Assembly: GCA_045648865.1 (NCBI GenBank)
Contig: JAZROU010000011.1
Location: 1 to 41,975, forward strand
Length of the DNA: 41,975 bases
Direction of reading: 5' to 3'
Source of the DNA: Candidatus Enterousia sp.
GTDB lineage: Bacteria > Pseudomonadota > Alphaproteobacteria > Rs-D84
Shown here: positions 1,655 through 22,928 of the stretch, piece by piece
Layout: every line of letters starts with the position of its first letter
Numbering within the stretch: the stretch's first letter is position 1
Notes under the pieces: generated by a model
Told to the model about the DNA's origin: nothing
Database searches by the model: none
What the model saw: only the letters and a program-made list of their open reading frames with translations
Translations under genes and position numbers: made by a program

Positions 1655-1686
1655 AACCGCCCAGAACGGGCGGTTAACTTTTTTTC
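1655..1686 (+). terminator. rho-independent terminator after GT8
   Basis: AACCGCCC agaac GGGCGGTT followed by aacttttttt. Confidence 0.7.
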
Positions 1687-1758
1687 ACAACAACGGCATA
1701 CAACACGAAAAATCGCATCATACAAATGATTTTTTTTAATGACATTACCAAGAACTTG

Positions 1759-1786
1759 TTGAAAAAAAACACTTTTTTGATATAAT
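1759..1786 (+). promoter_or_regulatory. near-consensus promoter TTGAAA-16-TGaTATAAT
   Basis: TTGAAA 1759..1764, 16-nt spacer, TG 1778..1779, TATAAT 1781..1786; AAGGG SD and ATG 1813 downstream. Confidence 0.65.
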
Positions 1787-1812
1787 TTTATAAAAAGATA
1801 AGGGTAGAAAAA

Positions 1813-2454: not shown

Positions 2455-2507
2455 CTTTTTTTTATATATTCACAATAATAATAGAAAACAATAAGGAAGG
2501 TTATATT

Positions 2508-3005: not shown

Positions 3006-3027
3006 GTAATGACAAAGGAAAAAAGAA

Positions 3028-3585: not shown

Positions 3586-3611
3586 AAACACAACATGCAC
3601 TATCCTGAAAC

Positions 3612-3640
3612 ATACCCGCCCATGCGGGTATTTATTATTT
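3612..3640 (+). terminator. rho-independent terminator
   Basis: ATACCCGC ccat GCGGGTAT followed by ttattattt. Confidence 0.7.
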
Positions 3641-3683
3641 CACCATACAAAAACACTGCAGATACAATAAATAAAATTCTTAT

Positions 3684-4661: not shown

Positions 4662-4731
4662 ACATACTATTATATCACAAAAGCCCACCCGATAAAATCA
4701 AAATCTGTTTCCAGCAACCGAACAAAGCAAC

Positions 4732-5745: not shown

Positions 5746-5750
5746 ATTAT

Positions 5751-6581: not shown

Positions 6582-6582
6582 A

Positions 6583-7446: not shown

Positions 7447-7723
7447 ACTATATAATCTACATGTTTTATTTGTAATTTGCAACAGCGGAGTTTTTTTATG
7501 TCCATCCAAATATTTGGTCCCATCAGATATAAAAATCACTTATTAAAATCTGGTATTTTTGACACACTCTCTGCGCCAACAATCACGCCTGTACAACAAA
7601 CGCTATGGCGGGAAATTTATTAATCAGGTAAAAAGAATTCTGATAAAAATATCTGCATGCTTTATACCTATACGCACATGGCGCGGCCGGTATCGAACAT
7701 ACATGCGAACCAGATTCATCGGA

Positions 7724-7749
7724 TAAAAAAACTGCCCCACATGGGGCAG
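7724..7749 (-). terminator. rho-independent terminator of the 7761..8348 OMP gene
   Basis: minus-strand CTGCCCC atgt GGGGCAG followed by tttttttt. Confidence 0.7.
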
Positions 7750-7760
7750 AAATCCCAGAT

Positions 7761-8348
7761 TTAAAACACGTATCGTGCCCCAACAGAAAATTCAGACATA
7801 GTATTTATCAAATCATTCCCCAGTGGTGTATATTGATATTGAATAATCGCAGCAACCCTGTCATACGGGAACGTGTACATCAAACCGATTCCAAAACGTG
7901 TACTGACGGTGTTATCAGACATCTCCTGCTGAAATTCATCCAGGTTATCAATATATTCGTATTTATTGTATATTTTGTAATTTGCAACACCAAAAGATGT
8001 AAAGAAATCAAAATTATCAGCAACCCCATAATAGCCATAAATATCAAATCCAAACGCCATATAATACAGTTCGTGATTTATTGCGCTGAACATATGAACA
8101 TATTCCAGTTCATTTGTCGAAGAATGTGAAAAGAATAATTCCACACCAAAATTTTTCCCAATCCGCGCCCCTGCATTAATTGTTGCCGAATAATAATTTT
8201 CATCTAATTCGGTATCCATTGTATAATCAGCAATATTCAATCCCGCATCAATACCCAAATAAGGTTTAAAATTATTATTGGTATAAATCCCAGCATACGC
8301 GTTAAACGAAAACACCCCAGCAAGCATAACAAATAAAATTTTTTTCAT
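7761..8348 (-). CDS. small outer-membrane beta-barrel protein (OmpA-like 8-strand/OMP_b-brl type)
   Basis: signal peptide MKKILFVMLAGVFSFNAYA, C-terminal ...FSVGARYVF; GGTGGGGAA SD before ATG 8348 (trimmed from 8360). Confidence 0.8.
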   Translation of the reverse strand: MKKILFVMLAGVFSFNAYAGIYTNNNFKPYLGIDAGLNIADYTMDTELDENYYSATINAGARIGKNFGVELFFSHSSTNELEYVHMFSAINHELYYMAFGFDIYGYYGVADNFDFFTSFGVANYKIYNKYEYIDNLDEFQQEMSDNTVSTRFGIGLMYTFPYDRVAAIIQYQYTPLGNDLINTMSEFSVGARYVF

Positions 8349-8472
8349 ATTCCCCACCATTCATTACAAAGATAATTTTATTAAACCCCAAAATAAAAGG
8401 CAATGGTAATATTTGCTTCTGGTGACGATTGCTACAATAAAAAACACCCCATGTGGGGCATTTTTTTTAAAC

Positions 8473-8549
<77 letters not shown>

Positions 8550-8562
8550 ATAAGGTGTGCTT

Positions 8563-8590
8563 ATTATATACTTTTTATGACAATAGTCAA
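8563..8590 (-). promoter_or_regulatory. promoter of tRNA-fMet: TTGACT-16-TATAAT
   Basis: minus-strand TTGACT (8590..8585), 16-nt spacer, TATAAT (8568..8563), 13 nt before the mature 5' end. Confidence 0.65.
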
Positions 8591-8636
8591 ACAAAAAAAA
8601 TTCACACGCATTTTTAGACGATATTCCTAGTCTTTC

Positions 8637-8665
8637 TTGAATTATGTATTTTTTATTGCTAAGAT
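8637..8665 (+). promoter_or_regulatory. candidate promoter TTGAAT-17-TAAGAT for the DUF374-lpxK-lpxC operon
   Basis: TTGAAT 8637..8642, 17-nt spacer, TAAGAT 8660..8665. Confidence 0.5.
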
Positions 8666-8694
8666 TCTGGCATGATTAAATCAAAGGTTATATC

Positions 8695-9495
8695 GTGTTA
8701 AAAAATAAAACATTCAGAAAACTGTGGAAAGGTTTTTGGGAACCAATACTGTCGCTGGGGATTTTTCAGTGGATTATTGCTATTTTCATGGCTATTCCGA
8801 TTTGGTTTGCATACTTTACATCTGTCAAACGCATAACAAACATAGAAACATTCTATAAATATCGTAAAAAACCGGCTATTTTTGTATTCTGGCATGGTCG
8901 CAGTTTGATGTTAAGCCCGATTATTTGCCTGGGTGGCATGCGCGCATACGCCGTGGCCAGTCGCCACAAAGACGGTCGAATGATGGCAAAATTGCAACAT
9001 TTATTTGGTTTGCGTGCCATATACGGTTCTTCGCACAAGGGGGGTGTATCTGTTCTGCGTGCTGGTCTGCGTGTATTGGCCCGTGGCGATCATGGTATTT
9101 GCATGTCGCCAGATGGCCCTGGCGGCCCATCACTGCGTGTCCAAGACGGTGCACTGTATTTTGCAAAGATGTCTGGCGCCCCAATCATACCTGTATGTTT
9201 CAGTGCCAAACGCGCCTGGATTCAAGATAGATGGGATAAATATTTACTGGCCCTGCCATTTAACAAAATAACCTGCAATGTTGGCAATCCTGTATTTGTT
9301 CCTAAACGCGCCACCACCCAAGAATTTGAAAAAATCAGAAAAGACCTGGAAGATTTCATGGTTGCACAAATGCGTGAACTGGACGCGGAATTTGGCCTGC
9401 CACACATTGAACAAGATTTAACCGCATCTGAATACAAACGCAAAAAACGCGAACAGATTGAAAACAACAAGAAAAACAAAAAAGGAAAAAAATGA
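8695..9495 (+). CDS. DUF374 / lysophospholipid-acyltransferase-superfamily protein commonly linked to Kdo/lipid A genes
   Basis: FVFWHGRSLM, SRHKDGRMMAKLQHLFGLRAIYGSS, MSPDGPGGP, GAPIIPV, RWDKYLLALPF blocks; GTG start with AAAGG SD. Confidence 0.8.
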   Translation: MLKNKTFRKLWKGFWEPILSLGIFQWIIAIFMAIPIWFAYFTSVKRITNIETFYKYRKKPAIFVFWHGRSLMLSPIICLGGMRAYAVASRHKDGRMMAKLQHLFGLRAIYGSSHKGGVSVLRAGLRVLARGDHGICMSPDGPGGPSLRVQDGALYFAKMSGAPIIPVCFSAKRAWIQDRWDKYLLALPFNKITCNVGNPVFVPKRATTQEFEKIRKDLEDFMVAQMRELDAEFGLPHIEQDLTASEYKRKKREQIENNKKNKKGKK

Positions 9496-10394
9496 AAACC
9501 CCATGGTGGTTTCTTAGCAAAAATCCCGTATCCATATTACTGGTACCAATTTCATGGCTGTATTACAGCGCCAGTTGTATTGTGCATTTTTTACGCGGTT
9601 TTAAACCACTAAAATCACGTCGAAAAATCATCTGTGTTGGCAACATACTTGCCGGTGGTGTTGGCAAAACCCCGATTGTACGTGCAATTGCGAACATGTA
9701 TGGTGCCCCTGTTGTAATGCGCGGATACAAGGGCAACGCCAAAACCGGCAACATTGGCGACGAAGCCACAATGTTATCACGCACAGGTTTGGCCGTACAC
9801 GTTGGCGACAGAAAAAGCAACATAATTTTACTGAACAAACAAACCGACACCGGTCCAATTATAATGGACGATGGCCTGCAAAATCCGACAATTAAAAAAG
9901 ACATTTCAATAATGGTATTTGACCAAGGTCTGGGATACGGCAATGGCCTGATGTTACCGGCCGGTCCGCTGCGCCAACCAAAGCGTATGGTTAAACGTGC
10001 AGACGCCGTGATTATCATAAAAAATGATAAACCCAAAAAGAAATTCAATCTGCCTGTTGGCGTTCCTGTATTTTATGCAAAAAATCAGACCACATCACCA
10101 TATGACGAAGACGAACGTCTGGTTGCATTTGCGGGCATTGGTTATCCAAAAAAATTCTTTTCATCCCTAAAAAACGTTGTTTCACGTCGCAGTTTTCCAG
10201 ATCATTATCAATATACAACCCAGGATTTAGAAAAACTTATATCCCTGGCTGAAAAGAAGCATGCCAAATTAATCACTACTGAAAAAGATTGGGTACGCCT
10301 GCCGATTGAAATACGCGATCAAATAAAATATGCCAGACTGGACACAGTTATTGAAAACACATTTTGGGACTGGCTAAAGGAGAAAATAAAATGA
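9492..10394 (+). CDS. lpxK: tetraacyldisaccharide 4'-kinase
   Basis: P-loop VGNILAGGVGKTP, DDGLQN block, size 300 aa; ATGA overlap with upstream gene. Confidence 0.9.
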   Translation: MKTPWWFLSKNPVSILLVPISWLYYSASCIVHFLRGFKPLKSRRKIICVGNILAGGVGKTPIVRAIANMYGAPVVMRGYKGNAKTGNIGDEATMLSRTGLAVHVGDRKSNIILLNKQTDTGPIIMDDGLQNPTIKKDISIMVFDQGLGYGNGLMLPAGPLRQPKRMVKRADAVIIIKNDKPKKKFNLPVGVPVFYAKNQTTSPYDEDERLVAFAGIGYPKKFFSSLKNVVSRRSFPDHYQYTTQDLEKLISLAEKKHAKLITTEKDWVRLPIEIRDQIKYARLDTVIENTFWDWLKEKIK

Positions 10395-11329
10395 CGACAC
10401 TGAAAAAAGCAGTCAAAATATCTGGTGTTGGTATTCATTCTGGTGCGCCTGTGGACATCATTGTAAAGCCATCAGAAAATCCTGGGATATATTTTCATCG
10501 TGTTGACATTGCTGGGTCTGAATTAATTCCTGCGACATTCGACAATGTTGGCGAAACCAAGATGCGCAACACAACCATTGGCGACAAAGACGGTGCCCAT
10601 GTCCAAACAATTGAACATTTAATGGCCGGGCTGTTTATATCCGGCATAGACAGTGCAATTATTGAAATCAACGGACCTGAAACACCAATCCTGGACGGCA
10701 GTGCCGCGCAATTTATTTCTGAATTTGACCGGGTGGGCAAAACCCCGGGTAAATTGAAAAAAATTATTGTAAAAAAACCTGTAATTGCCCATTCCCGCGA
10801 AATTTTACGCGACCTACCACTGTTTACCAGATTCAAGATATGGTTATTCAACACAATATCTGGTCGTAAAAATAATGGATTTGTAAAACTATCACCAAAC
10901 GATGGCACACGCCTAGAAATTACTGCGACATTAATATATCCAGAAAAGATAATTGGCAATCAAACATATAAATACACATTTGATTCAACACCTGAATCTG
11001 TTTCTGATTTTACGCGCAACATTGCCCGCGCCCGAACATTTGGAAAATATTCAGAATGGGAATACCTGAAAAAGCGTGGCATGGGTCGTGGTGCAAATGA
11101 AAACAATGTTATCGCATTAAATGACACGGGTGACGGGACACTGAACGAAACAATTTGGCCTGATGAATTTGTACGTCATAAAATTATTGATGCACTTGGC
11201 GACATGTACACATCTGGTGGTTTTATATGTGGATCACTGGAATCGTACAAAGGCAGTCATGCCTTAAACAATTTAATTTTGAAAAAATTGTTCAGCAACC
11301 CTGACAATTATGATATAATCGACGGGTAA
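10391..11329 (+). CDS. lpxC: UDP-3-O-acyl-N-acetylglucosamine deacetylase
   Basis: TLKKAVKISGVGIHSGAPV N-terminus, TIEHLMAGL, ILDGSA, HKIIDALGD blocks; AAGGAG SD, ATGA overlap with lpxK stop; start trimmed from 10364. Confidence 0.9.
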   Translation: MTTLKKAVKISGVGIHSGAPVDIIVKPSENPGIYFHRVDIAGSELIPATFDNVGETKMRNTTIGDKDGAHVQTIEHLMAGLFISGIDSAIIEINGPETPILDGSAAQFISEFDRVGKTPGKLKKIIVKKPVIAHSREILRDLPLFTRFKIWLFNTISGRKNNGFVKLSPNDGTRLEITATLIYPEKIIGNQTYKYTFDSTPESVSDFTRNIARARTFGKYSEWEYLKKRGMGRGANENNVIALNDTGDGTLNETIWPDEFVRHKIIDALGDMYTSGGFICGSLESYKGSHALNNLILKKLFSNPDNYDIIDG

Positions 11330-11348
11330 ATCACAAGGGGGGACATAT

Positions 11349-11765
11349 ATGAAGAAATTTTTTGCATTATTTGCTGTTTTATTGTCTGTCACCGCATGCA
11401 GCAACATGATTAAGAACGAAAACAACAGTCAATATTTGGTTCAGCTTGATTCCGAACCAATTGGTTGTACATTCTTATACAAACTTGAATCCGAGGTTTC
11501 CGTCTACGCCGCCGAAGATGCCCGCAGATATCTGGAAAACCGCATCGCAGACCAGGCCCGTCCCGGCAACGCATACTGGATAACCAGTCAACGGACCAAG
11601 CCAAACGAATGGGTAATATTTGGTCCCGAACGTGCATTTGTATTGGTTGCAAACGTATATGATTGCCCACACCAAAATAATATCAGAACCGCCCGTGACG
11701 GTGGTCCTGCGACCGTATCTGTACAATCTGTATCAAATGGTTGTACATACGGAACATGCCAATAA
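11349..11765 (+). CDS. hypothetical lipoprotein, 138 aa
   Basis: lipobox LLSVTAC after MKKFFALFAV; AAGGGGGG SD; terminator downstream. Confidence 0.7.
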   Translation: MKKFFALFAVLLSVTACSNMIKNENNSQYLVQLDSEPIGCTFLYKLESEVSVYAAEDARRYLENRIADQARPGNAYWITSQRTKPNEWVIFGPERAFVLVANVYDCPHQNNIRTARDGGPATVSVQSVSNGCTYGTCQ

Positions 11766-11797
11766 AAAAAGTCCCATGATTCTGGGACTTTTTTTTA
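11764..11797. terminator. bidirectional rho-independent terminator between convergent genes
   Basis: A-run, AGTCCCA tgattc TGGGACT, T-run. Confidence 0.7.
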
Positions 11798-11810
11798 TTT
11801 AAAAATTAAT

Positions 11811-12422
11811 TTATTTAAAACATTTTTTTAAATCATCACCTGATTCAACATCATCTATTTTTTTATTACGAATTTCTTGTGCAGCGGCTATTTTCTGTTT
11901 TATTAAAATCAGTTCAGGATGTGATTGTAACTCACTGTTCATTACATTTATAATATCATCGATATCATCACGTGATTTAACAAATCGTGGCATAACAGAT
12001 TGCGCTGCACTGTAAACAGCCATTTGTAAATCACCCTTTAAATCATCAATTACAGACAGATATGTTTTTATATGCATATCTTCATGATTTAATATTGCAT
12101 TAAACGCACATGAATTTGGTTGATGTCTGATATCGATATGCACGACAAAGTCACTGTATCCAACGACACAATTTACATATTTTAATCCGACACAATATCC
12201 CCCATTGACTGGATTTACATCTGCATTTATTTGATAATTATCAACCAGCGTCGCCACAACATTACCATGCCACAAATTCATTTGTTCATGTGGTTGAACG
12301 ACTGTCTTTGACCAATCTGGTGTATTGATATAAACCCCTGGAATTTTTTTAAATTGCAAACAATCTGCCGCCACACATGGCCACCCCATCAAAAACAAAG
12401 TGCCCCAGACTAAAATTCGCAT
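11811..12422 (-). CDS. secreted hypothetical protein, 203 aa, with HExxH motif (HEDMH); possibly DUF922-like Zn-protease fold; helical C-terminal half
   Basis: N-terminal hydrophobic signal MRILVWGTLFLMGWPCVAA; HEDMH encoded at 12086..12072; start ATG shares one nt with the virB4 stop (TAATG). Confidence 0.6.
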   Translation of the reverse strand: MRILVWGTLFLMGWPCVAADCLQFKKIPGVYINTPDWSKTVVQPHEQMNLWHGNVVATLVDNYQINADVNPVNGGYCVGLKYVNCVVGYSDFVVHIDIRHQPNSCAFNAILNHEDMHIKTYLSVIDDLKGDLQMAVYSAAQSVMPRFVKSRDDIDDIINVMNSELQSHPELILIKQKIAAAQEIRNKKIDDVESGDDLKKCFK

Positions 12423-14854
12423 TAATCGGCCGCCCCTTGTTTTTTCAGGTATTCATTAACAAAATTATTACCATACATTTTGTACAATTCTTCGGCCAAC
12501 AGCACCGACGAACGTCCTGATTCAAACAGTCTTAATAAATTCCCCAAACCACCCAGTTCTGTATTTAAAATCACAGATTCACCATTAACCGGCCGCGACA
12601 GCAACACCGCGCGCTTCAAATTTGGATATGCCTTGCCCTGGATGAACGCCATTTCTAATGGGTTTAAATTCCAGTGTGCATAATCTGACGCATCTGCGGC
12701 CGGGTTTCGGAAAAACATAACTGTCTGTGCCTGGCCACGCACAACATCACCCACCCCTAATTTATCCAGCACATTTGCACGTTGGAATGCAACCATATAT
12801 GCCTGGCGATTTTTACGTCCTTCTTGTAATCCTGTAATAAAGTTATCACGGAACATTTTGTTTTCCAGCATTGGTGCAGTTTCGTCAATCATAATCAACG
12901 ATGGGTTTCCACCTGACACAGTAATATTGTTAATTCTGTGTAATATATATGAAATTACCGCCGGGGACAAAACCTGGTCGTTTAAAATATCTGTAAAATC
13001 GAATGTTGTCAGACGCGAATGCAAATCCAGTGTATCTGATACTTCGTTAAACATATCACCATATTGCAATGGGTCGACCCATTTTTTCAGTGCCGCGCGC
13101 ATATTTCCGGACGACGAAAAACAACTTTCCCACAAATTTTTCAACATCCTGTCATTATCGTTCAAGTAATCAAAATTCACCGACACAGCGCGCGCAATTT
13201 CATCTGCGGACGCGGCATCACTTTGCCCTGAAATAATTGCGAACCACCGCCGCAAGAACGCACGATTCACTGCGGAATCCGGCATTTTCAGCGGATTTAA
13301 ATGGGTCAAGAAAGTCTGTTCCATCGGATCAGATTTTTTTTCTTTTCCATGCATTGTGATATACTTTCCACCGACCGCCAATGTAAAGATTTCCGCCCCT
13401 TTGTTTCTGTCGAAAAAGAACGCCTTTAACTTTGGGTGACGCAAACTTTGCGCAATCAAAAATGAAAACAGTGTTGTCTTACCACCACCTGTCGGTCCGA
13501 TTGTCAACGTATGTCCAACAGCCGCCGGTTTATCCGACACATGAAATTGGAATTGATACGGCGTCCCCTGCGCGGTTGGGAACACCACCAGTGGCCCTGG
13601 CCCCCAGTCTGAATTTTCAACACCGCGTGGCTGACTTGACATTGGAATTGAAATTGCCGCCGCCCGTGATAACAATTTAAAACTGCGTGGAAAAACATTA
13701 AATCCTGGAATTTGTGCGAACCACGAAACCTTGGACGCAAATGTTTCAACAACAGGCGAAATACCAAATTGCGCTGCAATCTTTCTAAATTCATCAACAT
13801 ATTTTTGCAAATCTTCAATTGTTGCACCAAACAAAACAAACAATGGATAGTAATCAACCAAGCTTTGGTTACCGCTAACATTTTCATCCATTGCGACCTG
13901 GGCCTGTGAAATTTGTGATTCTGTTGACTGTGCCTTTTCTTCTTCTGCGGTTGAACGTTTTCTTCTTATTGTATTTTCGACATCTGCGGCCTTCATTATA
14001 TGAAAACCATTCATAGTAATCATTTCTGTCTGAATTGTCGACACAGTATCAAAGAATTCTTCATCCAGATAATCCGGCGAAATTTTAAATGACACACATG
14101 CTGCAAACGATTGATTTCCACCGCTGATATACCGCACAACGCCATCATTCAAGAATTCCACATCATCAACCGTTGTTAATTTTGCGATATTATTATCTGC
14201 GCGTTTTGGCATTGGTTTTGAAATTGGCGACAAAATCCGTCCAAAGAAACGTGCCATATTATCTGGACTGTCATTTTTCAACACCACCGGTTTATATGGG
14301 GCCAGTATTGATTCAATATAATTACCATATTGATTCAGTTTTGCCCGCGCATCCCCCCCTGCAACGGACAACACAATATAATAATTATTCAAGAAAATCT
14401 TTAATCCCTGTCCGCGCCATTTATTATATATACGCTGCAACGTGGGCTGATCGAATTCATAATTTGTATTTTCATCTGCCGCGTCACGTATCATATAGAA
14501 CCGCAGAACAACACCTGAATCACGAATTTGATTAAACAATTGCGCCCGCAAATCCAAGAATTTTTCTTTTGCCGCATCATCCTGCATACTGGTCTGCAAT
14601 CCTGCAACCCTGTACACACGAATTAAACTGCCATCGGTCAGCTGCATAGAATTATCATTATATACCGTACTGAACGGCAAATAGTTTGAATATTTTGCAT
14701 AACCAAATTTAGGAAAAATCCTACGATTTAAAACCGGCACATACATTACCAGTATTAAAAACACACACAAAGACGCCAACACCAAAACAGTTAAAGTAAT
14801 TGGGAAAACACCACCTGCAAAATATTCAAAAAATTCATTTAACTGATGTATCAT
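12422..14854 (-). CDS. virB4: type IV secretion system ATPase VirB4 (CagE/TrbE family)
   Basis: 810 aa; Walker A GPTGGGKTT, IMIDETAPML Walker B region, N-terminal region ...LPFSTVYNDNSMQLTDGSLIRVYRVAGL typical of VirB4. Confidence 0.9.
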   Translation of the reverse strand: MIHQLNEFFEYFAGGVFPITLTVLVLASLCVFLILVMYVPVLNRRIFPKFGYAKYSNYLPFSTVYNDNSMQLTDGSLIRVYRVAGLQTSMQDDAAKEKFLDLRAQLFNQIRDSGVVLRFYMIRDAADENTNYEFDQPTLQRIYNKWRGQGLKIFLNNYYIVLSVAGGDARAKLNQYGNYIESILAPYKPVVLKNDSPDNMARFFGRILSPISKPMPKRADNNIAKLTTVDDVEFLNDGVVRYISGGNQSFAACVSFKISPDYLDEEFFDTVSTIQTEMITMNGFHIMKAADVENTIRRKRSTAEEEKAQSTESQISQAQVAMDENVSGNQSLVDYYPLFVLFGATIEDLQKYVDEFRKIAAQFGISPVVETFASKVSWFAQIPGFNVFPRSFKLLSRAAAISIPMSSQPRGVENSDWGPGPLVVFPTAQGTPYQFQFHVSDKPAAVGHTLTIGPTGGGKTTLFSFLIAQSLRHPKLKAFFFDRNKGAEIFTLAVGGKYITMHGKEKKSDPMEQTFLTHLNPLKMPDSAVNRAFLRRWFAIISGQSDAASADEIARAVSVNFDYLNDNDRMLKNLWESCFSSSGNMRAALKKWVDPLQYGDMFNEVSDTLDLHSRLTTFDFTDILNDQVLSPAVISYILHRINNITVSGGNPSLIMIDETAPMLENKMFRDNFITGLQEGRKNRQAYMVAFQRANVLDKLGVGDVVRGQAQTVMFFRNPAADASDYAHWNLNPLEMAFIQGKAYPNLKRAVLLSRPVNGESVILNTELGGLGNLLRLFESGRSSVLLAEELYKMYGNNFVNEYLKKQGAAD

Positions 14855-15147
14855 GCTGCCAATTTTCCTGGTATTTTACGTTTTAATAGTTGTAATTTTG
14901 CGGTAACAATCTGTCCCAATTGCGGGTCACGCTTTGAAAATATTGCGATTATCATATGAACAATTATAACCGACACTAAAAAATATAGCGGTTGCACTGG
15001 CCTAGTGCCCTTGGTAACAACCACAGAAATAACAAATACAACAATCCAAATCAAGAATTGAACAAGAAAATTTAACACGGCCAACGAATAAGGCACATAA
15101 AAAATATGCGCCGGGTTTGCCAATGCTTTTAATACTTGCTGTTTCAT
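14851..15147 (-). CDS. virB3: type IV secretion system protein VirB3
   Basis: 98 aa, two hydrophobic helices, LANPAHIFYVPYS and SKRDPQLGQIV blocks; ATGA overlap with virB4; GGAAAGAG SD. Confidence 0.8.
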   Translation of the reverse strand: MKQQVLKALANPAHIFYVPYSLAVLNFLVQFLIWIVVFVISVVVTKGTRPVQPLYFLVSVIIVHMIIAIFSKRDPQLGQIVTAKLQLLKRKIPGKLAA

Positions 15148-15168
15148 TCTCTTTCCGTCCTGTTGATA

Positions 15169-15197
15169 ATTATAACAATTTCAACAATTTTCAACAA
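15169..15197 (-). promoter_or_regulatory. candidate virB3 promoter TTGTTG-17-TGtTATAAT
   Basis: minus-strand TTGTTG (15197..15192), 17-nt spacer, extended -10 TGtTATAAT (-10 hexamer 15174..15169), 21 nt with SD before ATG 15147. Confidence 0.45.
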
Positions 15198-15372
15198 GCA
15201 TAAAAAGCCCAGAACTTATTTTTGTTAAAACTGTTAAAAACCTATCCCCTTTTCAACTGTTAATTATTTTGTTAAATTTTCAACAATTTCGTAAAAAGTC
15301 GGGAAAACCTGGCAAATAATTGTTGAAAACCTGTTAATAAAAAACTAAAAACTGTTTTCAACACTTTCAACC
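15178..15372. repeat. array of TTTTCAACA-type 9-mers (six direct, one inverted) interleaved with CTGTTAA/TGTTAA words
   Basis: TTTCAACA 15179..15186; TTTTCAACA 15188..15196, 15277..15285, 15355..15363; TTTTCAACT 15250..15258; TTTCAACC 15365..15372; inverted TGTTGAAAA 15321..15329; CTGTTAA at 15231, 15257, 15331. Confidence 0.8.
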
Positions 15373-15407
15373 ACCCCTACTACAACTACTAATAAATAAT
15401 ATATTAT

Positions 15408-15435
15408 TTGATTTTTAAAAAAATATGTTTATAAT
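15408..15435 (+). promoter_or_regulatory. rpmJ promoter TTGATT-16-TATAAT
   Basis: TTGATT 15408..15413, 16-nt spacer, TATAAT 15430..15435; AAAAAGGA SD then ATG 15459. Confidence 0.55.
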
Positions 15436-15458
15436 CGCCTTGTAAAAAGGATTAAGAC

Positions 15459-15593
15459 ATGAAATTTTTAAGTTCATTAAAGGCTTGGAAGAAACGCGGT
15501 AATGTAAAACAGATCCGTCGTGGCAAACAGGTTATCTTGATCGACCCTAACAACCCAAAATTCAAAGCAAAACAGGGTTTCAAGAAAAAATAA
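15459..15593 (+). CDS. rpmJ: 50S ribosomal protein L36, Cys-free long form (44 aa); missed by the ORF track
   Basis: MKFLSSLKAWKKRGNVKQIRRGKQVILIDPNNPKFKAKQGFKKK matches the alphaproteobacterial MK..SLK....R......RR.G...I.....P.FKARQG pattern. Confidence 0.85.
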   Translation: MKFLSSLKAWKKRGNVKQIRRGKQVILIDPNNPKFKAKQGFKKK

Positions 15594-15598
15594 AAATT

Positions 15599-15621
15599 CC
15601 GCCGATTGGCGGTTTTTTTTT
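15599..15621. terminator. bidirectional terminator shared by rpmJ and sspB
   Basis: CCGCC gatt GGCGG followed by a 9-nt T-run; the sspB stop lies in the T-run. Confidence 0.65.
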
Positions 15622-16084
15622 ATTTTCTGTTCTTTCTAAATTCATCCAAAGACACAACACGACCTGGGTCTGGGACGGTATCTGGTTTTTCTTCCAGTGG
15701 TAATTCCATATCATTATCTGTGGTTGCTGGTTGCATTTTTGTCTGGAACGACAGCATAAAATCAACCGATGGGTCTTTGAATTCGACCAACGCAGAAAAT
15801 GGCACACGAATAAAGAACGGACGTCCATCAAACGTTAGTTGCACACCAAATTCTTTATCTGACACATGCAGGTTATTATAAGAATATTGCAAAACAATTG
15901 TCATAATATCTGGATATCTGATACGCAAAAAGTCCGGCAAAACGACACCACTGTCACGTGTACGAAACGTGATAAAGAAGTGCGTTCCATCCCCCAGTCC
16001 ATTAAATTGTGCATGAACCAATGCGTCTTTGACCACAGATTTCAATGCATTGTCTAACAAAGTTTGATAATCGATACGTGCCAT
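15620..16084 (-). CDS. sspB: ClpXP adaptor SspB (alphaproteobacterial type)
   Basis: DYQTLLDNALKSVVKDAL...THFFITFRTRDSGVVLPDFLRIRYPDIMTIVLQYSYNNLHV...FSALVEFKDPSVDF matches the alpha-type SspB pattern I recall. Confidence 0.8.
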   Translation of the reverse strand: MARIDYQTLLDNALKSVVKDALVHAQFNGLGDGTHFFITFRTRDSGVVLPDFLRIRYPDIMTIVLQYSYNNLHVSDKEFGVQLTFDGRPFFIRVPFSALVEFKDPSVDFMLSFQTKMQPATTDNDMELPLEEKPDTVPDPGRVVSLDEFRKNRK

Positions 16085-16090
16085 AATAAA

Positions 16091-17170
16091 TCACTCCGGG
16101 CATACTATATTACTTATTTCACCATTTGTGCAAGAAACAAATACAGCATCATTTATATTACTAAATATTTCCGGCGCCAATCCTGTTGCCCAAACTTGGG
16201 CGTTTGATTTTGCCAGTTCTGAAAACACTAAATCGCGCGCATTTTTATCCAGGTGCGCCGCAGCCTCGTCCAGCAGAATTATTGGATTATACGATGTTTT
16301 TGTATGTATCAGCTTTGCATGCGCCAATATTAAATCAATCAGCACAGTTTTTTGTTGTCCTGTACTGGTCAGATATGCCGGTAAATTTAGTTCATTATTA
16401 AATACGCCAAAGTCCGATTTATGCGGCCCATCCAGCACCATTTTATCACCACGCATTGTGCGATTTTGTTTTAAATATTCCAGATATGCACGTTCTGCGT
16501 CCCCTGCACTCATCCCATCAATCAGCATTTTTTCAATAACCCCAGACACAGACACCGCGCATCTTTTTAAAAAATAGTTTAATTCCCCTGCGTATTGAAT
16601 ACGTGCGACGGCAATTGCGACGGCAACACCGGCGATTTGCATATCCAGTGCATCCATCCAATGTGCATTCGCCCCTGATTTTATTGCGAACGCCCGCTCG
16701 CTCAGCAATTTTGCCAATCTTGCATTTCTGCCTTGGTGTGATGCGTCAAAACTGGCGCACAGTCTGTCAAAGAAAGCGCGTCTTTCTGCGGCGCCTTCTA
16801 CAAACAGTCTGTCTTCACGTGGGGTTATCCAAACAATTCTGATATATTTTGCCAAATCTGCCAATGGTGCATTATCGCCATCTATTTTTGCACGTCTGTT
16901 TGTATCCCCCCCGACAAATTGTACTGAAATTTCTGTTTCATCGGCCAGATTTGCAAAAACACAAAATCCCCCATTACCAGAAAATCTTGCAATATCACCC
17001 ATACCAACGCCACGCATACCACGATCCCCCCCCAGCATTGATACCGCCTCTAATATTGCTGTTTTACCTGCCCCATTTGGTCCAGTTATAATAACATTGC
17101 GTCGTCCAAACGTGTTAATACGACACATATTATGATTTCGAAAATCTGTCAGGCAAATAGTATTAATCAT
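16091..17170 (-). CDS. recF: DNA replication and repair protein RecF
   Basis: LTDFRNH, Walker A GPNGAGKTAILEA, SxGQQK signature (STGQQKT), ILLDEAAAHLD; start trimmed to ATG 17170. Confidence 0.9.
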   Translation of the reverse strand: MINTICLTDFRNHNMCRINTFGRRNVIITGPNGAGKTAILEAVSMLGGDRGMRGVGMGDIARFSGNGGFCVFANLADETEISVQFVGGDTNRRAKIDGDNAPLADLAKYIRIVWITPREDRLFVEGAAERRAFFDRLCASFDASHQGRNARLAKLLSERAFAIKSGANAHWMDALDMQIAGVAVAIAVARIQYAGELNYFLKRCAVSVSGVIEKMLIDGMSAGDAERAYLEYLKQNRTMRGDKMVLDGPHKSDFGVFNNELNLPAYLTSTGQQKTVLIDLILAHAKLIHTKTSYNPIILLDEAAAHLDKNARDLVFSELAKSNAQVWATGLAPEIFSNINDAVFVSCTNGEISNIVCPE

Positions 17171-17223
17171 GCGCCGATGATACAAAAAAATTCCCAACTG
17201 TACAAGTGTTCAAAATATTATAT

Positions 17224-17892
17224 TTATTCGCACAGGAATGCTTCTTTTAATGCTGTATCAACCTCTGCGCCGGACAAACCCGCACACCTCAAAAAGAATA
17301 TTTGTTCATCACCTGGTTTATACAAAGACGCACTGTGGTCTGCGCGTATTGGTTCAGACATAATATTTTGACCTGGCATAAATTCTATTTTTGCACCATC
17401 ATCTGCCATTGCGATAAATGCGATATCAGATTCGCAATCTTCACATTCTTTGTTAATGAACGCCACCCCGGACAATTTTGAAACAGAATTTTTCCCGGCC
17501 AAAACCTTATTTTTTATCAAAACAGCCGTATTTTTATAAAAATGTTCGGCGTTACATTTATATACCAGATCTGATTGATTATCAATCAAGACTGTACCTG
17601 AAATAACAGAATTTTTCCCGGCGTTTTTGATAAAAATGTTCAAAAAAGCCGGCTTTTTTATTTTTACATTAACACTAACAATAATTTTTTGATTTTCTGC
17701 CCCGACTAAAATTTCCAGATTGTTTTTCCCGGCGATTTCGCCAACATATATTATATGCACCGGCAAATTAAATTTAGTATTAATTGGTGCATTTGGCAAT
17801 GTTGATAAATCACTACAATATTGTCCATCGCGGTAAACAATAGTTTCCGCAGGAATTGTTTTTATATTGAATTCGTTCCACATGTATGACAT
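17224..17892 (-). CDS. short SufD/SufB-family (SufBD beta-helix) protein, 222 aa
   Basis: C-terminus ...IRADHSASLYKPGDEQIFFLRCAGLSGAEVDTALKEAFL parallels the E. coli SufD ...[23 protein letters not shown]...AF block; repeated AGKNS coil units. Confidence 0.65.
   Translation of the reverse strand: MSYMWNEFNIKTIPAETIVYRDGQYCSDLSTLPNAPINTKFNLPVHIIYVGEIAGKNNLEILVGAENQKIIVSVNVKIKKPAFLNIFIKNAGKNSVISGTVLIDNQSDLVYKCNAEHFYKNTAVLIKNKVLAGKNSVSKLSGVAFINKECEDCESDIAFIAMADDGAKIEFMPGQNIMSEPIRADHSASLYKPGDEQIFFLRCAGLSGAEVDTALKEAFLCE
17617..17653. repeat. copy A of a 37-nt repeat (inside the SufD-like CDS)
   Basis: cccggcGtttttgataaaaatgttcaaaaaagccgg; 36/37 identical to 19024..19060. Confidence 0.9.
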
Positions 17893-17901
17893 ATTGTTGC
17901 T

Positions 17902-17930
17902 ATTATAAAGGATTTGATAATGGGATTCAA
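17902..17930 (-). promoter_or_regulatory. promoter TTGAAT-17-TATAAT, 9 nt before the SufD-like ATG
   Basis: minus-strand TTGAAT (17930..17925), 17-nt spacer, TATAAT (17907..17902), agcaacaat, ATG 17892. Confidence 0.55.
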
Positions 17931-18999
17931 TTGTGGAATTGTGGGTCTGCCAAATGTTGGTAAATCTACACTGTTTAATGCTTTGACACAAAGTGCCGCG
18001 GCCGATGCGCAGAATTATCCATTCTGTACAATCGAACCGAATACGGGGCGCGTGGTTGTACCAGATGCAACTTTGCATGAATTGGCGCGTGTGGCGGGTT
18101 CTCAGAAAATACTGCCGACCCAGCTGGAAATTGTTGATATTGCGGGCCTTGTCAAGGGCGCGTCCACCGGCGAAGGATTGGGGAATAAATTCCTGGGGAA
18201 TATTTTATCGACCGACGCGATAATTCATGTTGTCAGATGTTTTGAAAATGACGATATTGTGCACGTTCACGGCAAGATTGATCCACTGGGGGATATTGAA
18301 ACAATTGAAACAGAATTAATGTTGGCGGATTTGGAAAGCATTGATAAACAAATTAAAAACCTGGAAAAGCGCGCGCGTGGCCTGGACAAAGATGCGATTA
18401 AATTATTGGCAGACGCCAACGCGATTAAAGCAAACCTGGAAAAATCAATACCTGCGCGCATGGGTGATATTGATTCAACGCCATTTAATTTACTGACATC
18501 AAAACCTGTGATATACGTTTGCAATGTTGACGAATCGTCCGCTGCCACCGGCAATAAATATTCAGATATGGTTCGCGAAAAATTCGGCGCAACAAACGAT
18601 GTATTGGTAATATCATCAAAGATAGAGATGGAGATTTCACAAATCGTTGACCCAGACGAACGTAAAATGTTCCTGGATGACTTGGGCTTGTCTGAATCTG
18701 GACTGGACCAGGTGATTAAGACTGGCTATAAAACATTGGGGTTGCAAACATATTATACCATTGGCCCCAAAGAGGCACACGCCTGGACAATAACCGCCGG
18801 CATGACGGCGCCCCAGGCGGCGGGAAAAATCCACACTGATTTTGAACGTGGATTTATCCGTGCCGAAGTGATTTCGCCCGCTGACTTTATATCGCTTGGT
18901 GGCGAAGTCGCCGTCAAAGAGGCCGGCAAAATGCGTCTGGTTGGCCGTGATTATGTGATGCAACCGGGCGACATATGTCACTTCTTGTTTAATACCTAA
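17920..18999 (+). CDS. ychF: ribosome-binding ATPase YchF (Obg-family GTPase fold)
   Basis: GIVGLPNVGKSTLFNALT, DIAGLVKGAS, C-terminal TGS-like ...RAEVISPADF...GRDYVMQPGDICHFLFN; AAAGGA SD before ATG 17920. Confidence 0.9.
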   Translation: MGFNCGIVGLPNVGKSTLFNALTQSAAADAQNYPFCTIEPNTGRVVVPDATLHELARVAGSQKILPTQLEIVDIAGLVKGASTGEGLGNKFLGNILSTDAIIHVVRCFENDDIVHVHGKIDPLGDIETIETELMLADLESIDKQIKNLEKRARGLDKDAIKLLADANAIKANLEKSIPARMGDIDSTPFNLLTSKPVIYVCNVDESSAATGNKYSDMVREKFGATNDVLVISSKIEMEISQIVDPDERKMFLDDLGLSESGLDQVIKTGYKTLGLQTYYTIGPKEAHAWTITAGMTAPQAAGKIHTDFERGFIRAEVISPADFISLGGEVAVKEAGKMRLVGRDYVMQPGDICHFLFNT

Positions 19000-19023
19000 A
19001 AAAATAAAACTGTTGAAAAAAAT

Positions 19024-19064: not shown

Positions 19065-20684
19065 TTATATTGAAACTAAAATATCTAATTTCTCGGTATA
19101 TTTTTCAATTTCCGAATTTATGCGTGTTATTTCATCACGCGCATCTTCGTTCCCCGCCAACAGTTGCTTTGTAAATTCGCGTTTCTGCGCGTTCAGTTTT
19201 TCCAAATATCTTTGCAGTTTCAGTGACACAATATATTTTTCAGCTGCACCCGCATCCATACTAAGTTCCGGCGCATTCCCATCAAAATCCACCCCCAGCG
19301 TCCCCAAGAAATCCATATATCGTTCTGCCAGTTCTGGGAAATTATTAACGATATAAACCAAGGTATTTTTTGTCACCGCCCCAACATCTGGCAATTTTAC
19401 ATCTGGCAATTTCGTTGTTTTTTTCCATTTATTCCAGTTTTGAAATTTACGTTTATCATATTCTTGCTTGTACTGTTTACGCAATTCTGGGTCGACAATT
19501 TTTTCAATTTGCCCGTCCAAGAATTTTTCTGCCTGGGTCCGTCCCCCTGGTGTTGATACAACATAGTTTTTATTTGCCAATTCCCACAAAAAATCAGTCA
19601 AGGTCATCGCATCGTCGATAATTTTTTTCATGGCCCCTGTGCCACCAGATTTTAGTATTTCATCTGGGTCTTTGCCCCCGGACACGAACGCGAATTTTAC
19701 ATCTGATGTATCACGAATAAACGGCAATACAATGTTGCATGCGCGCGCAGCAGCCTTTTGCCCGGCCGCATCCCCGTCAAAACAAAATGTTATATTCCTG
19801 TTTGATTTACACAGCAACGCAATATGATCTTCGGTCAGCGCAGTCCCCAGTGGCGCAACAGTTTCCCCGAATCCATTTACCTGCATTTTGATTGCGTCAA
19901 TTTGTCCTTCGACGACGATACTGCGGTTTGCGCGATGGATTGCGTCACGTGCAAAGTTCAACCCAAACACGGTCTGACGTTTATGGAAAATATCAGTATC
20001 TGTTGTATTTATGTATTTTGGTTCTGATCCATCCAGTGATCGTCCTGAAAACGCCACAATTTTTCCCCGCGCATTAAATATAGGGAACATTAATTTATCG
20101 CGAAAAAAATCATACATTCCATTATTTCCGTGCCGACATAACCCCGACGCAATCAGATATTTAGATTCTGCAAATTTATTTGCGATAATATTATTTTTAG
20201 GCGCATAACCGATACGATATTTTTTTATCATATCATCTGAAAAACCGCGTCTACGCACGTATTCCAGTGCATGCGCTGCATCTGATGTAAACAATTTTTC
20301 AGAATATGTCTGTGCGGCCCGTTCACAAATATCGAATAATGCATCTTCGTGTTTTACGACATTTGGGTCACGAGGTTTATAATCTGGCATTTTCAGTCCC
20401 GCCATATTGGCCAGTTCTGAAATCGCAGCCTTGAAATCCATGTTATTATGCTTCATCGTGAACGAAATAATATCGCCATGTTCGCCACATCCGAAACAGT
20501 GATAAAACCCCTTTTCTTCATTCACGGAAAAACTGGGGGTTTTTTCATTATGAAACGGACAGCACCCCCAGTAATTTTGTCCCTTGCGTGATAATGGCAC
20601 AACGCGTCCTACAACATCCACCACCGACAACCGCGCACGCAGTTCATCTGTGAAATTGGAATAATTGTGTCGTGTTGGCGCCAT
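19065..20684 (-). CDS. dnaG: DNA primase
   Basis: zinc-binding CPFHNEKTPSFSV...YHCFGCGEHGD, TOPRIM region IVVEGQIDA...FDGDAAG; ATG 20684 shares one nt with the topA stop (GTG 20687 is the alternative). Confidence 0.9.
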   Translation of the reverse strand: MAPTRHNYSNFTDELRARLSVVDVVGRVVPLSRKGQNYWGCCPFHNEKTPSFSVNEEKGFYHCFGCGEHGDIISFTMKHNNMDFKAAISELANMAGLKMPDYKPRDPNVVKHEDALFDICERAAQTYSEKLFTSDAAHALEYVRRRGFSDDMIKKYRIGYAPKNNIIANKFAESKYLIASGLCRHGNNGMYDFFRDKLMFPIFNARGKIVAFSGRSLDGSEPKYINTTDTDIFHKRQTVFGLNFARDAIHRANRSIVVEGQIDAIKMQVNGFGETVAPLGTALTEDHIALLCKSNRNITFCFDGDAAGQKAAARACNIVLPFIRDTSDVKFAFVSGGKDPDEILKSGGTGAMKKIIDDAMTLTDFLWELANKNYVVSTPGGRTQAEKFLDGQIEKIVDPELRKQYKQEYDKRKFQNWNKWKKTTKLPDVKLPDVGAVTKNTLVYIVNNFPELAERYMDFLGTLGVDFDGNAPELSMDAGAAEKYIVSLKLQRYLEKLNAQKREFTKQLLAGNEDARDEITRINSEIEKYTEKLDILVSI

Positions 20685-22924
20685 CACTTTTTCTTTGCCT
20701 TGTTATTAATCAGTTTTATTGCGGTTTCCAAATCCGGCTGTTCACGCACCGAAACATTCACACGATTTGATGATATATACGCACCATACCGCCCGGTTGG
20801 GTAATAGTAAATAATTTTTTTGGTTTCTGGATTTTCGCCAATTTTTATTGGTTCTGCTTTTTTTGCGATATTGGATAATAAATCGTGTGCGATTTCCAGT
20901 GTTATTGTATCGGCGCTATATTGTTTTGCGGCCACATTTTTTACACCATCTGTCACATACGGACCAAATTTTCCCACACGAAATTCAATCCCATCCCCCA
21001 GTTCAACTGTACCTGATTTAGCATTCACTGCGGCGGATTCTGCAACCTGTGCGGCGGCATCAACCTTGCCCAGTTGTTTTGTGTACTTGCAATCTGGGTA
21101 TTTTTCGCATCCAATAAATGGTCCAAACTTAGACAATTTTATACCCAGTTTTGCGCCACATTCCGGGCATACATCATTACCATCTGGGAATAAATGCCTG
21201 TTCATAAATTCATTCAGTTCATCGATAATCTCTGACGTTTTAATACCGCGTGCACCATCAATCATTGCATCTGTCGGCCCCCAGAAATTTTTCAACGCGC
21301 TGATTTTATCTTGTTTACCATTTGACACATCGTCCAGTGTATCTTCTGTTTTTGCGGTAAAGTTTACATCAACTAAATCCGTAAAGTACTTGTTTAAATA
21401 TGACGCAATCACCCATCCGCCATTTGTTGGGTGGAAACGGCGTTGTTTATCTTGTTCGACATATGCACGGTCGACAATTGTTGACATAATTGTCGCATAC
21501 GTAGATGGTCGCCCAATCCCCAGTTCTTCTAACTTTTTAACCAACGAGGCTTCTGTATATCTGGGTGGTGCCTGGGTAAAATGCTGTTCTGGCATCAGTT
21601 CAGAAATTTTAATTGCATCACCAACATTCAATGGTGGTAATTTTGCGTCACGCTTGTCTTCTTCATCATCTTTATCTTCGGTATAAACCTTCATAAAACC
21701 ATCAAATGTTCGTGTTGAACCAACTGCGTGAAATATTGCAACTTTGTTTTCTGTTTCGATATCCGCCGCGACCGAGTCAAATTCTGCATTCGTCATCTGG
21801 CATGCGATTGTACGTTTCCAAATCAGGTCATACAGTTTTGCCTCATCCCCGCTTAAATTTTTTGCCGGCGCGTCAAAATGTGTTGGTCGAATTGCTTCGT
21901 GTGCTTCTTGGGCATTTTTGGATTTTGTTGCATAAATGTTTGGTGATTTTGGAACAAATTTTTCACCGTATTCACGTGCGATATACCCGCGAATTTCATT
22001 AACTGCATCTGCGTTCAGGTTTGTTGCGTCTGTACGCATATATGTGATTAACCCCTGTTCATAGAGGTGCTGTGCCGCACTCATTGTGCGTTTTGATGCA
22101 AAATATAATTTACGTGCTGCCTCTTGTTGCAGGGTTGACGTTGTAAATGGTGCCGCCGGTTTTCGTTGATTTTTCTTTTTTTCAACATTTATAACACTGG
22201 CCCCGATTTCAGGATTACCAATTTGTGATAAAATATCATCAACCATCGATTTGTTTTCAATGGTCATTTTTTCAATTTTTTTACCATTAAATTTATTCAG
22301 CATTGCTTTAAAAGCCGCAGAATCCGCCGTACACGTTGATTCTAATGACCAATATTCCACAGGCTTGAAATTTTCAATTTCTTTTTCACGATCAACCACC
22401 AATTTTACCGCCACAGATTGTACGCGTCCCGCAGATTTTCCCAAATTTCTGCGCCACAGCAACGGTGAAATTCCGAACCCAATCAGGTAATCTAACGCGC
22501 GCCGCACCAGGTATGCATCCACCAAATTTGTATCAATTTCACGTGGTGCTTCAATAGCAGTCTGGACGGCTTTTTTTGTAATTTCATGGAACGCAACGCG
22601 ATAAACTTTCTTGTCTTTTAATAATCTTTTTGCCTTTAAAATATCCAACAGATGCCATGCGATGGCTTCTCCTTCGCGGTCAGGGTCGCTTGCCAGATAA
22701 ACAGCATCTGCTTTTTTTAATTCATCTGTAATCAGTTTAATTTGCTTTTCTTTACCTGGCATAATTTGCCATTTCATTTTGAAATTATTTTCGGTATCTA
22801 CACTGCCGTTTTCTGGAACCAAATCGCGTACATGACCAACAGATGCGATAACACGCCACCCTGCCCCCAGGTATTTTTCAATTGTTTTTGCCTTGGATGG
22901 TGATTCCACGATTAACAAGTTCAT
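20684..22924 (-). CDS. topA: DNA topoisomerase I
   Basis: MNLLIVESPSKAKTIEKYLG, DPDREGEAIAWH, active-site region ITYMRTD, C-terminal CPECG...CEKYPDC zinc ribbon; start trimmed from 22990 to ATG 22924. Confidence 0.92.
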   Translation of the reverse strand: MNLLIVESPSKAKTIEKYLGAGWRVIASVGHVRDLVPENGSVDTENNFKMKWQIMPGKEKQIKLITDELKKADAVYLASDPDREGEAIAWHLLDILKAKRLLKDKKVYRVAFHEITKKAVQTAIEAPREIDTNLVDAYLVRRALDYLIGFGISPLLWRRNLGKSAGRVQSVAVKLVVDREKEIENFKPVEYWSLESTCTADSAAFKAMLNKFNGKKIEKMTIENKSMVDDILSQIGNPEIGASVINVEKKKNQRKPAAPFTTSTLQQEAARKLYFASKRTMSAAQHLYEQGLITYMRTDATNLNADAVNEIRGYIAREYGEKFVPKSPNIYATKSKNAQEAHEAIRPTHFDAPAKNLSGDEAKLYDLIWKRTIACQMTNAEFDSVAADIETENKVAIFHAVGSTRTFDGFMKVYTEDKDDEEDKRDAKLPPLNVGDAIKISELMPEQHFTQAPPRYTEASLVKKLEELGIGRPSTYATIMSTIVDRAYVEQDKQRRFHPTNGGWVIASYLNKYFTDLVDVNFTAKTEDTLDDVSNGKQDKISALKNFWGPTDAMIDGARGIKTSEIIDELNEFMNRHLFPDGNDVCPECGAKLGIKLSKFGPFIGCEKYPDCKYTKQLGKVDAAAQVAESAAVNAKSGTVELGDGIEFRVGKFGPYVTDGVKNVAAKQYSADTITLEIAHDLLSNIAKKAEPIKIGENPETKKIIYYYPTGRYGAYISSNRVNVSVREQPDLETAIKLINNKAKKK

Positions 22925-22928
22925 ATCC

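Follow-up and report, generated by a model that had tools for sequence, protein, structure and literature searches.

The DNA analyzed here, a 41,975-nt contig of Candidatus Enterousia sp. (JAZROU010000011.1; hereafter the window, at its full length), carries between the divergently transcribed genes virB3 and rpmJ a 311-nt spacer (15148..15458, 26% GC) filled with copies of a single 9-bp word. On sequence grounds we tentatively interpret this spacer as a cluster of DnaA boxes and a candidate replication origin (oriC) of Candidatus Enterousia, which makes it the best placed of the readings considered below, held with some reserve. This reading is favored because the word matches a documented DnaA-box variant, is specific to this spacer, sits in a spacer of constrained length and is flanked by an AT-rich stretch. 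The array is conserved across the genus in sequence, position and spacing, and coincides with a break in strand composition. The host belongs to a widespread uncultured gut lineage of the order Rs-D84, thought to be dependent on other cells, with genomes of ~0.75-1.0 Mb and a predicted partner-dependent lifestyle (PMC12306168). The VirB4 protein encoded in the window shares 92-93% identity with VirB4 proteins of Enterousia metagenome-assembled genomes (MAGs).

The density of the words is far beyond expectation. All four exact copies of TTTTCAACA reported in the initial annotation of this DNA (15188, 15277 and 15355 on the plus strand, 15321 on the minus strand) were recovered, as compared with 0.03 expected in 311 nt, and none of 5000 dinucleotide-preserving shuffles of the spacer reached four; a relaxed form, TTTYAACA, occurs seven times vs. 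0.28 expected, a count likewise reached in 0/5000 shuffles. The copies of CTGTTAA (15231, 15257 and 15331) and TGTTAA (15223 and 15270) are also present, but their assignment to a separate word family had to be abandoned, as alignment reveals a single motif, TTTTYAACA / TGTTRAAAA, of which CTGTTAA represents the A-for-G form in opposite-strand reading. Two of the supposed one-off variants required correction: such variants do exist, but the one near 15179 is ATTTCAACA at 15178-15186, and the one near 15365 is CTTTCAACC at 15364-15372, which has two mismatches. The perfect inverted repeat formed by TGTTGAAAAC (15321-15330) and GTTTTCAACA (15354-15363), 23 nt apart, holds and extends to 13 nt at 92% identity.

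To follow the array through the genus, orthologous spacers were taken from 75 species-level genomes with virB3 and rpmJ both on the contig. The divergent gene pair is present in 75/75, and the spacer measures 307-325 nt in 72 of these species and ~375 nt in the remaining three. Motif occurrences fall at fixed alignment columns, whereas the linkers between them vary freely in sequence and seldom in length. Pooling of 760 aligned sites from 76 species gives the consensus T-T-T-T-Y-A-A-C-A-(A/G) with a nearly invariant core T-Y-A-A-C-A, where A occupies position 6 in 753 sites and C in just two, and the form with C at the variable position (TCAAC) predominates (429/760). The same sites are kept in the 311-314-nt spacers of metagenome relatives with VirB3 proteins of only 43-52% identity, in which the block AATTATAACAATTTCAACA(A/T)TTTTCAACAAG(C/T)A(T/C)AAAA is unchanged. 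The mean pairwise identity of the spacers (0.68) equals that of virB3 coding DNA. As an aside on their composition, GATC (2/76 spacers) and GANTC (9/76) are several-fold rarer than in shuffled spacers (~0.6 expected per spacer).

Ten boxes, named S1-S10, are distinguished, with species fractions given below as presence at the fixed alignment columns among the 76 species. Nearest virB3, S1 (ATTTCAACA, 15178..15186, plus strand; core start 15179; TTTYAAC in 74/76) lies between the virB3 -35 and -10 elements, in tandem with S2 (TTTTCAACA, 15188..15196, plus strand; core start 15189; 76/76), whose minus strand contains TTGAAA, the -35 candidate of virB3. Two boxes follow on the minus strand, namely S3 (plus strand TGTTAAAAC, 15223..15231; core start 15224; 58/76) and, in tandem with it at 9 bp, S4 (plus strand TGTTAAAAA, minus strand TTTTTAACA, 15232..15240; core start 15233; 65/76). 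The plus-strand boxes S5 (TTTTCAACT, 15250..15258; core start 15251; 52/76), which abuts a conserved TGTTAAT in opposite orientation (15258-15264), and S6 (TTTTCAACA, 15277..15285; core start 15278; 51/76) are succeeded by minus-strand S7 (plus strand TGTTGAAAA, 15321..15329; core start 15322; 75/76), which reads TGTTAAAAA in many species, and S8 (plus strand TGTTAATAA, i.e., TTATTAACA, 15332..15340; core start 15333), located 11 bp from S7 and the weakest member of the set. The array closes with a plus-strand tandem pair facing an AT-rich stretch, S9 (TTTTCAACA, 15355..15363; core start 15356; 70/76) and S10 (CTTTCAACC, consensus ATTTCAACA, 15364..15372; core start 15365), the latter with an exact 7-mer core in 37/76 species and the core AAC in 75-76/76. 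Of the two pairs initially placed about one helical turn apart, S1-S2 indeed has a period of 10 bp, but S9-S10 is spaced by 9 bp. An extra minus-strand box in the window, TTATCAACA (15161..15169), coincides with the predicted virB3 transcription start and stands outside the genus consensus. Amid the array, a G+C-rich patch, GTCGGGAAAACCTGGC (15296-15312 in the window), keeps its position across species and in some of them forms a short palindrome followed by a T run (GCCGG-N6-CCGGC in L013, ACCGG-N6-CCGGT in L109); it could be the site of a second factor or a weak bidirectional terminator.

The word is highly specific to this locus. The exact 9-mer occurs 245 times in 24.4 kb of virB3-rpmJ spacers (10 per kb), 6 times in the remaining intergenic DNA of 81 genomes (75.5 kb; 0.08 per kb), and 136 times in 974 kb of coding DNA (0.14 per kb), which makes it ~125 times denser in the spacers than between genes elsewhere in the genus. 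Neither another cluster of at least three sites nor another pair 8-12 bp apart was found, even when the motif was relaxed, in the 1.05 Mb that flank the spacers in these 81 genomes. Chromosomes have a single origin each, and we know of few other arrays with about ten copies of a 9-mer. The densities also dispose of the proposal that the words are merely the local -35 or UP-element flavor, brought together by chance or acting as decoys for RNA polymerase, which presupposed a similar density in most intergenic regions; we regard it as practically negligible. Although TTGAAA does lie inside the word, and the copy at 1757-1765 is, as initially annotated, the -35 of a good promoter, the sites of the array occur in both orientations, have no -10 partners apart from S2 and are conserved at fixed positions. 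That outside promoter (1757-1812; TTGTTGAAAA as -35 in TTGAAA-16-TGaTATAAT) precedes three genes in succession (1813-3585), none of which encodes a product with a match in Pfam or NCBIfam. Another copy, reported near 19017, is present at 19011-19019 and sits between two convergent genes.

Other classes of element were considered and dropped. An RNA element is not indicated by Rfam matches above chance, by the fold (z-score -1.5) or by the conservation pattern, which is word-wise with free linkers; with no RNA family match and no significant fold, the element is therefore taken to act as DNA. Plasmid-type iterons, i.e., 17-22-bp repeats in one orientation next to a rep gene, do not fit 9-bp units in mixed orientations with no rep gene. 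A full-text literature search for the word alone returned only primers.

The identity of the motif speaks for DnaA. Compared with the DnaA box of E. coli, TTATCCACA, TTTTYAACA has other bases at positions 3 and 6, and the initial annotation had considered an origin reading weak on account of the A at position 6. Published consensuses permit A there, so that this base is not disqualifying: the Mollicutes DnaA-box consensus is TT(T/A)TC(C/A)ACA, and annotated Acholeplasma laidlawii boxes follow TT(T/A)T(C/T)(C/A)ACA (PMC3322544, including its Table 2), while "ttttcaaca" is the box used for placing the DoriC-listed origin of Lawsonia intracellularis (PMC2671203). The Enterousia motif falls wholly inside the A. 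laidlawii consensus and fits the Mollicutes one apart from T for C at position 5 in some boxes. By sequence match, 10-11 candidate boxes in the spacer fit the variant consensus TT(T/A)T(C/T)(C/A)ACA, while none of them fits the strict TTATCCACA or TTWTNCACA form, and a chance match to a documented DnaA-box variant appears unlikely. Classical DnaA boxes show no cluster in the window (18 one-mismatch matches vs. 16.3 expected) and none occurs in the spacers of distant relatives. The origins of Mollicutes, A. laidlawii and Lawsonia share with the Enterousia spacer a box within the published consensus and the placement of several boxes in an AT-rich intergenic region by an AT-rich stretch. Unlike them, the Enterousia boxes all have A at position 6 without any CCACA mixture, number about ten as compared with 2-7, and lie between a type IV secretion system (T4SS) operon and rpmJ with no adjacent dnaA.

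A metagenome scan for the S1-S2 pair lent independent support through further instances of this box form; ~60 of the 120 stretches listed come from unrelated organisms. On several unrelated contigs the pair lies inside dense arrays that mix TGTTGA(A/T)AA with classical TGTGGA(A/T)AA. On a Firmicute-like contig (L122, 225-330), TTATCCACA, TTTTCCACA and several TTTTCAACA-type boxes stand together in ~100 nt; a mixed array fills the divergent ruvB-mfd spacer of an organism with 53% GC (L139, 3510-3800, and L104), and another is found at 58-59% GC (L110, 3916-4031, and L158). Such arrays, with the two box forms side by side, probably represent origins or clusters of DnaA boxes. On an Enterousia-like contig (L112), TTTTCCACA appears to lie near the place where S4 would be expected.

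The rpmJ-proximal end of the array has an origin-like architecture. Directly after S10 comes a GC cluster, CCACCCC (15371..15377, plus strand), at a place where a G+C-rich patch is kept in all species, and after it a run resembling DnaA-trios, CTA CTA CAA CTA CTA ATA (15377..15394, plus strand; bottom strand 3'-GAT GAT GTT GAT GAT TAT-5'), with 4/6 trios reading GAT on the correct strand. The adjoining 46-nt stretch (15390..15435) contains just two G/C (96% AT) and is a candidate unwinding element that also comprises the UP-like region and core promoter of rpmJ; this region following S9-S10 and the GC cluster is conserved, so that the putative boxes are joined by an AT-rich element of the kind expected for oriC. 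In E. coli and B. subtilis, the unwinding module runs in the order DnaA-box pair, GC cluster, DnaA-trios and AT-rich element, a scheme that reportedly goes back to Richardson et al. 2016 and later work. The window shows the same order and strand polarity (S9-S10, CCACCCC, trio-like run, 96% AT stretch); it differs in that the trio run is mostly CTACAAAAACAACA across Enterousia and in that the AT-rich stretch doubles as the rpmJ promoter. A signature scan of 200 loci found no dnaA within 6-10 kb of the locus, and in Alphaproteobacteria the distance of dnaA from the origin is no argument against an origin.

Strand composition provides partial support. Raw GC skew follows gene orientation and is uninformative; therefore third-codon GC skew was used, split into a coding-strand term and a strand term R (R > 0 where the strand read away from the spacer is G-rich). 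Left of the spacer, the window has a G-rich minus strand irrespective of how the genes are oriented (R ~0.3), with values of +0.30 to +0.56 for minus-strand genes and -0.09 to -0.45 for 7/8 plus-strand genes. In the window, where DUF374, lpxK and lpxC are oriented toward the spacer, their skews are -0.09, -0.23 and -0.24; in L202, where the same genes are oriented away from it, these amount to +0.50, +0.46 and +0.31. Since the skew flips with orientation, this is a true strand effect. To the right, the residual amounts to ~-0.08 over 26 kb, and the best single step is placed at 15000-15500. Across species, the virB side is positive in 30/36, the rpmJ side has a median of +0.07, and origin-type polarity on both sides is seen in 19 of the 28 species measurable on both, neither side ever falling below -0.10. 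Within these local flanks, strand composition is thus discontinuous at the spacer in a conserved manner, but with no clean sign inversion, and the unequal sides conform neither to a mid-replichore pattern (equal and opposite) nor to that of a clean origin (equal and positive). Strong rpmJ-side skew in L011, L017, L022, L023, L029 and L070 was discounted because of an inserted island there, as was that of sspB-recF in the window, a species-specific insertion. Viewed within the one genome of the window, an asymmetry of ~0.3 extends over the left 15 kb (1-15147) and almost none over the right 26 kb (15459-41975).

Both flanking promoters fire away from the array, and their cores are invariant across the genus. 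The virB3 promoter has an extended -10, TGtTATAAT (15177-15169, minus strand), in which the TATAAT hexamer reported in the initial annotation (15174..15169) is indeed preceded by TGt, a predicted start near 15162 and a Shine-Dalgarno sequence GGAAAGAG at 15156-15149; the block AATTATAACAATTTCAACAATTTTCAACAAGCATAAAA shows almost no variation. The tandem pair S2-S1 (TTGTTGAAAA TTGTTGAAAT on the minus strand) lies immediately upstream of this -10, and S2, as was proposed, is alone in having a -10 partner, its TTGAAA being the only -35 candidate for virB3. On the other side, the rpmJ promoter (TTGATT-16-TATAAT, 15408..15435, plus strand) is followed by the Shine-Dalgarno AAAGGA (15446-15451), with the invariant blocks TATTTGATTTTT and GTTTATAAT. 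Between the two promoters, ~200 nt of conserved sites belong to neither core.

If DnaA is the binder, as we infer, the ~ten TTTTYAACA 9-mers in both orientations, partly in tandem pairs 9-11 bp apart, would allow assembly of a DnaA oligomer, and S9-S10 would direct duplex opening at the 46-nt stretch beyond the GC cluster, where replication would start. Because S1-S2 lie over the virB3 -35 and the spacer region of that promoter, initiator occupancy would gate virB3-virB4 transcription; with or without an origin at this place, DnaA at S1-S2 would occlude or remodel the virB3-virB4 promoter. A more specific proposition, which we consider distinctly doubtful, is that oriC here uses the A6 form of the box alone, reflecting a shifted initiator specificity, and that the promoter of the T4SS ATPase operon is built into two of the boxes so as to tie secretion-system expression to the replication cycle.

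Several observations weigh against placing an origin at the spacer. The strict A at position 6 (753/760) is not what a standard DnaA, expected to tolerate or prefer C, would produce, and therefore points to a binder with changed specificity or to a protein other than DnaA. The skew lacks a clean sign change: on the rpmJ side the residual is 0 to -0.08 (window and L202, over > 10 kb) vs. ~+0.3 expected, and the positive rpmJ-side values in other species rest mostly on ychF, dnaG and sufD. Of the coding DNA that the window has right of the spacer, about 69%, including dnaG, topA, rodA and pbp2, points toward it, while the units for ribosomal proteins and tRNA (rpmJ, rpmI-rplT-pheST and tRNA-Cys), in keeping with an origin, all run in the other direction. 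The trio-like run is not conserved, being CTACAAAAACAACA in most other species, and therefore only the GC patch and the AT-rich stretch were counted. The CtrA and GANTC sites that mark a Caulobacter-type origin are not conserved, and a dedicated regulator would overlap the virB3 core promoter just as tightly. The DnaA-box-like cluster, which the initial annotation had listed last, now ranks first by its fit to published variants, with skew evidence that is only partial.

The strict A6, the incomplete skew signal and the tight promoter overlap keep in play, as the chief competitor though on balance an unlikely one, an operator field for a dedicated sequence-specific regulator (e.g., of the OmpR/PhoB type) that controls the divergent virB3-virB4 and rpmJ promoters; S1-S2 would then be a class II activator or repressor site, with cooperativity or looping contributed by the more distant sites. 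Such an operator for the T4SS operon, already envisaged in the initial annotation, is viable inasmuch as S1-S2 are exact direct repeats with a 10-bp period, within the 10-11 bp sought over a -35, and span -17 to -36 of the virB3 promoter. Pho-box-type promoters show the same direct-repeat geometry, in which two repeats replace the -35, as they do immediately upstream of the virB3 -10. Also in favor of an operator, the linkage of the array to virB3 persists even at 43% VirB3 identity, the strict A6 is in keeping with a binder that is not a standard DnaA, and the skew has no clean sign change. On the other hand, Pho-box/OmpR promoters do not have eight further sites in both orientations up to 200 bp away, and a lone dimeric response regulator would not usually have spacings of 9, 10 and 11 bp with sites in both directions. 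No regulator gene was found within 6-10 kb in any of > 80 species, and no regulon came to light, as no other promoter, T4SS or otherwise, has the pair, and no second array occurs, in ~1 Mb of flanks; the search of the flanks for T4SS genes or a regulator yielded only rhamnose/lipopolysaccharide genes, ABC-F, integrase islands and pilus-like genes. Ten sites would also be lavish for one small operon in a genome of < 1 Mb (PMC12306168), and the 9/9 fit to a published DnaA-box consensus would have to be a coincidence.

An improbable variant retains DnaA as the binder but has replication start elsewhere, the cluster being a DnaA-controlled promoter region or a titration site that would tie T4SS and L36 expression to the state of the initiator. 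All of the DnaA-motif evidence applies to it equally, the weak polarity that the rpmJ-side skew keeps in the window matches that of the virB side, and the genes right of the spacer are mostly oriented toward it. The array resembles E. coli datA and the DnaA-box clusters (DBCs) of B. subtilis in being a dense intergenic cluster able to regulate neighboring genes, but datA and DBCs occur in large genomes alongside a separate well-defined oriC. For genomes as small as 0.75-1.0 Mb (PMC12306168), a second large cluster would come at a high cost; the GC cluster and 96% AT stretch by a box pair, together with the strict spacer length, suggest more than titration, and the strong virB-side skew ends at the spacer in many species. 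Highly improbable, finally, are sites for a CtrA-type cell-cycle regulator (TTAA-N7-TTAA, with half-sites TTAAC). Caulobacter Cori, located near hemE, combines DnaA boxes with five CtrA sites, and the Enterousia spacer recalls it in its alphaproteobacterial host, its position away from dnaA and its intergenic array with flanking promoters. In favor of CtrA, TTAAC is part of the T form of the box, S7-S8 make a perfect TTAA-N7-TTAAC in some species (e.g., L030 and L036), and full CtrA-type sites exceed their frequency in shuffles 3.6-fold. However, TTAA-N7-TTAA is present in 31/76 species only, fewer than TTAA-N5-TTAA (44/76), the TCAAC form predominates, GANTC is depleted below its frequency in shuffles, and the genomic context is different from that of Cori, so that a CtrA/CcrM origin signature was rejected.

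Returning to the DnaA-box cluster and candidate oriC, we know of no origin proposed so far for Candidatus Enterousia. Such a candidate would provide an anchor for metagenome peak-to-trough estimates of growth rate, for orienting and closing MAGs and for constructing replicating vectors. If DnaA binds the array, the strict A6 would offer a natural test case for the drift of initiator specificity in AT-rich reduced genomes, and the overlap with the virB3 promoter would suggest a simple link between replication and secretion; if another protein does, the array would mark the main control region of the T4SS of this lineage.

In the window, the operon to the left of the spacer consists of virB3 (14851-15147), its first gene, followed by virB4 (12422-14854) and orf203 (11811-12422), all on the minus strand. 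The last gene, located after virB4 in 79/81 loci, encodes a 203-aa product with a signal-like N-terminal segment, for which Pfam, NCBIfam and PDB sequences gave no match, and which is an uncharacterized conserved partner of this VirB3-VirB4 pair. To the right are rpmJ (15459-15593, plus strand), which encodes type B ribosomal protein L36 and has a terminator at 15599-15612, sspB (15620-16084, minus), recF (16091-17197, minus), a sufD-like gene (17224-18078, minus), ychF (17914-18999, plus), dnaG (19065-20687, minus) and topA (20684-22990, minus). Only the genome of the window has the sspB-recF block (15594-17223) at this place, after rpmJ and before the sufD-like gene, the other 75 species having rpmJ followed by sufD-like, ychF, dnaG and topA; in L030, sspB-recF is found instead ~5 kb downstream of virB4. 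Some species have islands adjoining the conserved locus (L011, 2112-3296; L070, 477-5159; L201, 15346-21546), those on the rpmJ side with a tyrosine-integrase gene (confirmed in L011) and a gene for a 1560-aa protein with an M48-peptidase domain (confirmed in L070), and that on the virB side in L201 with RhuM, integrase and helix-turn-helix genes. The flanks of the locus thus appear to be insertion hotspots, whose islands distort local skew estimates.

A separate observation concerns four metagenome stretches unrelated to Enterousia (L098, L114, L148 and L182; GC 0.57-0.61), which share the 20-mer TTTCAACAATTTTCAACAAG with conserved flanks, located 7 nt after an apparent tRNA-gene 3' end as judged by eye; an integrative element may use it as an attachment or arm site.

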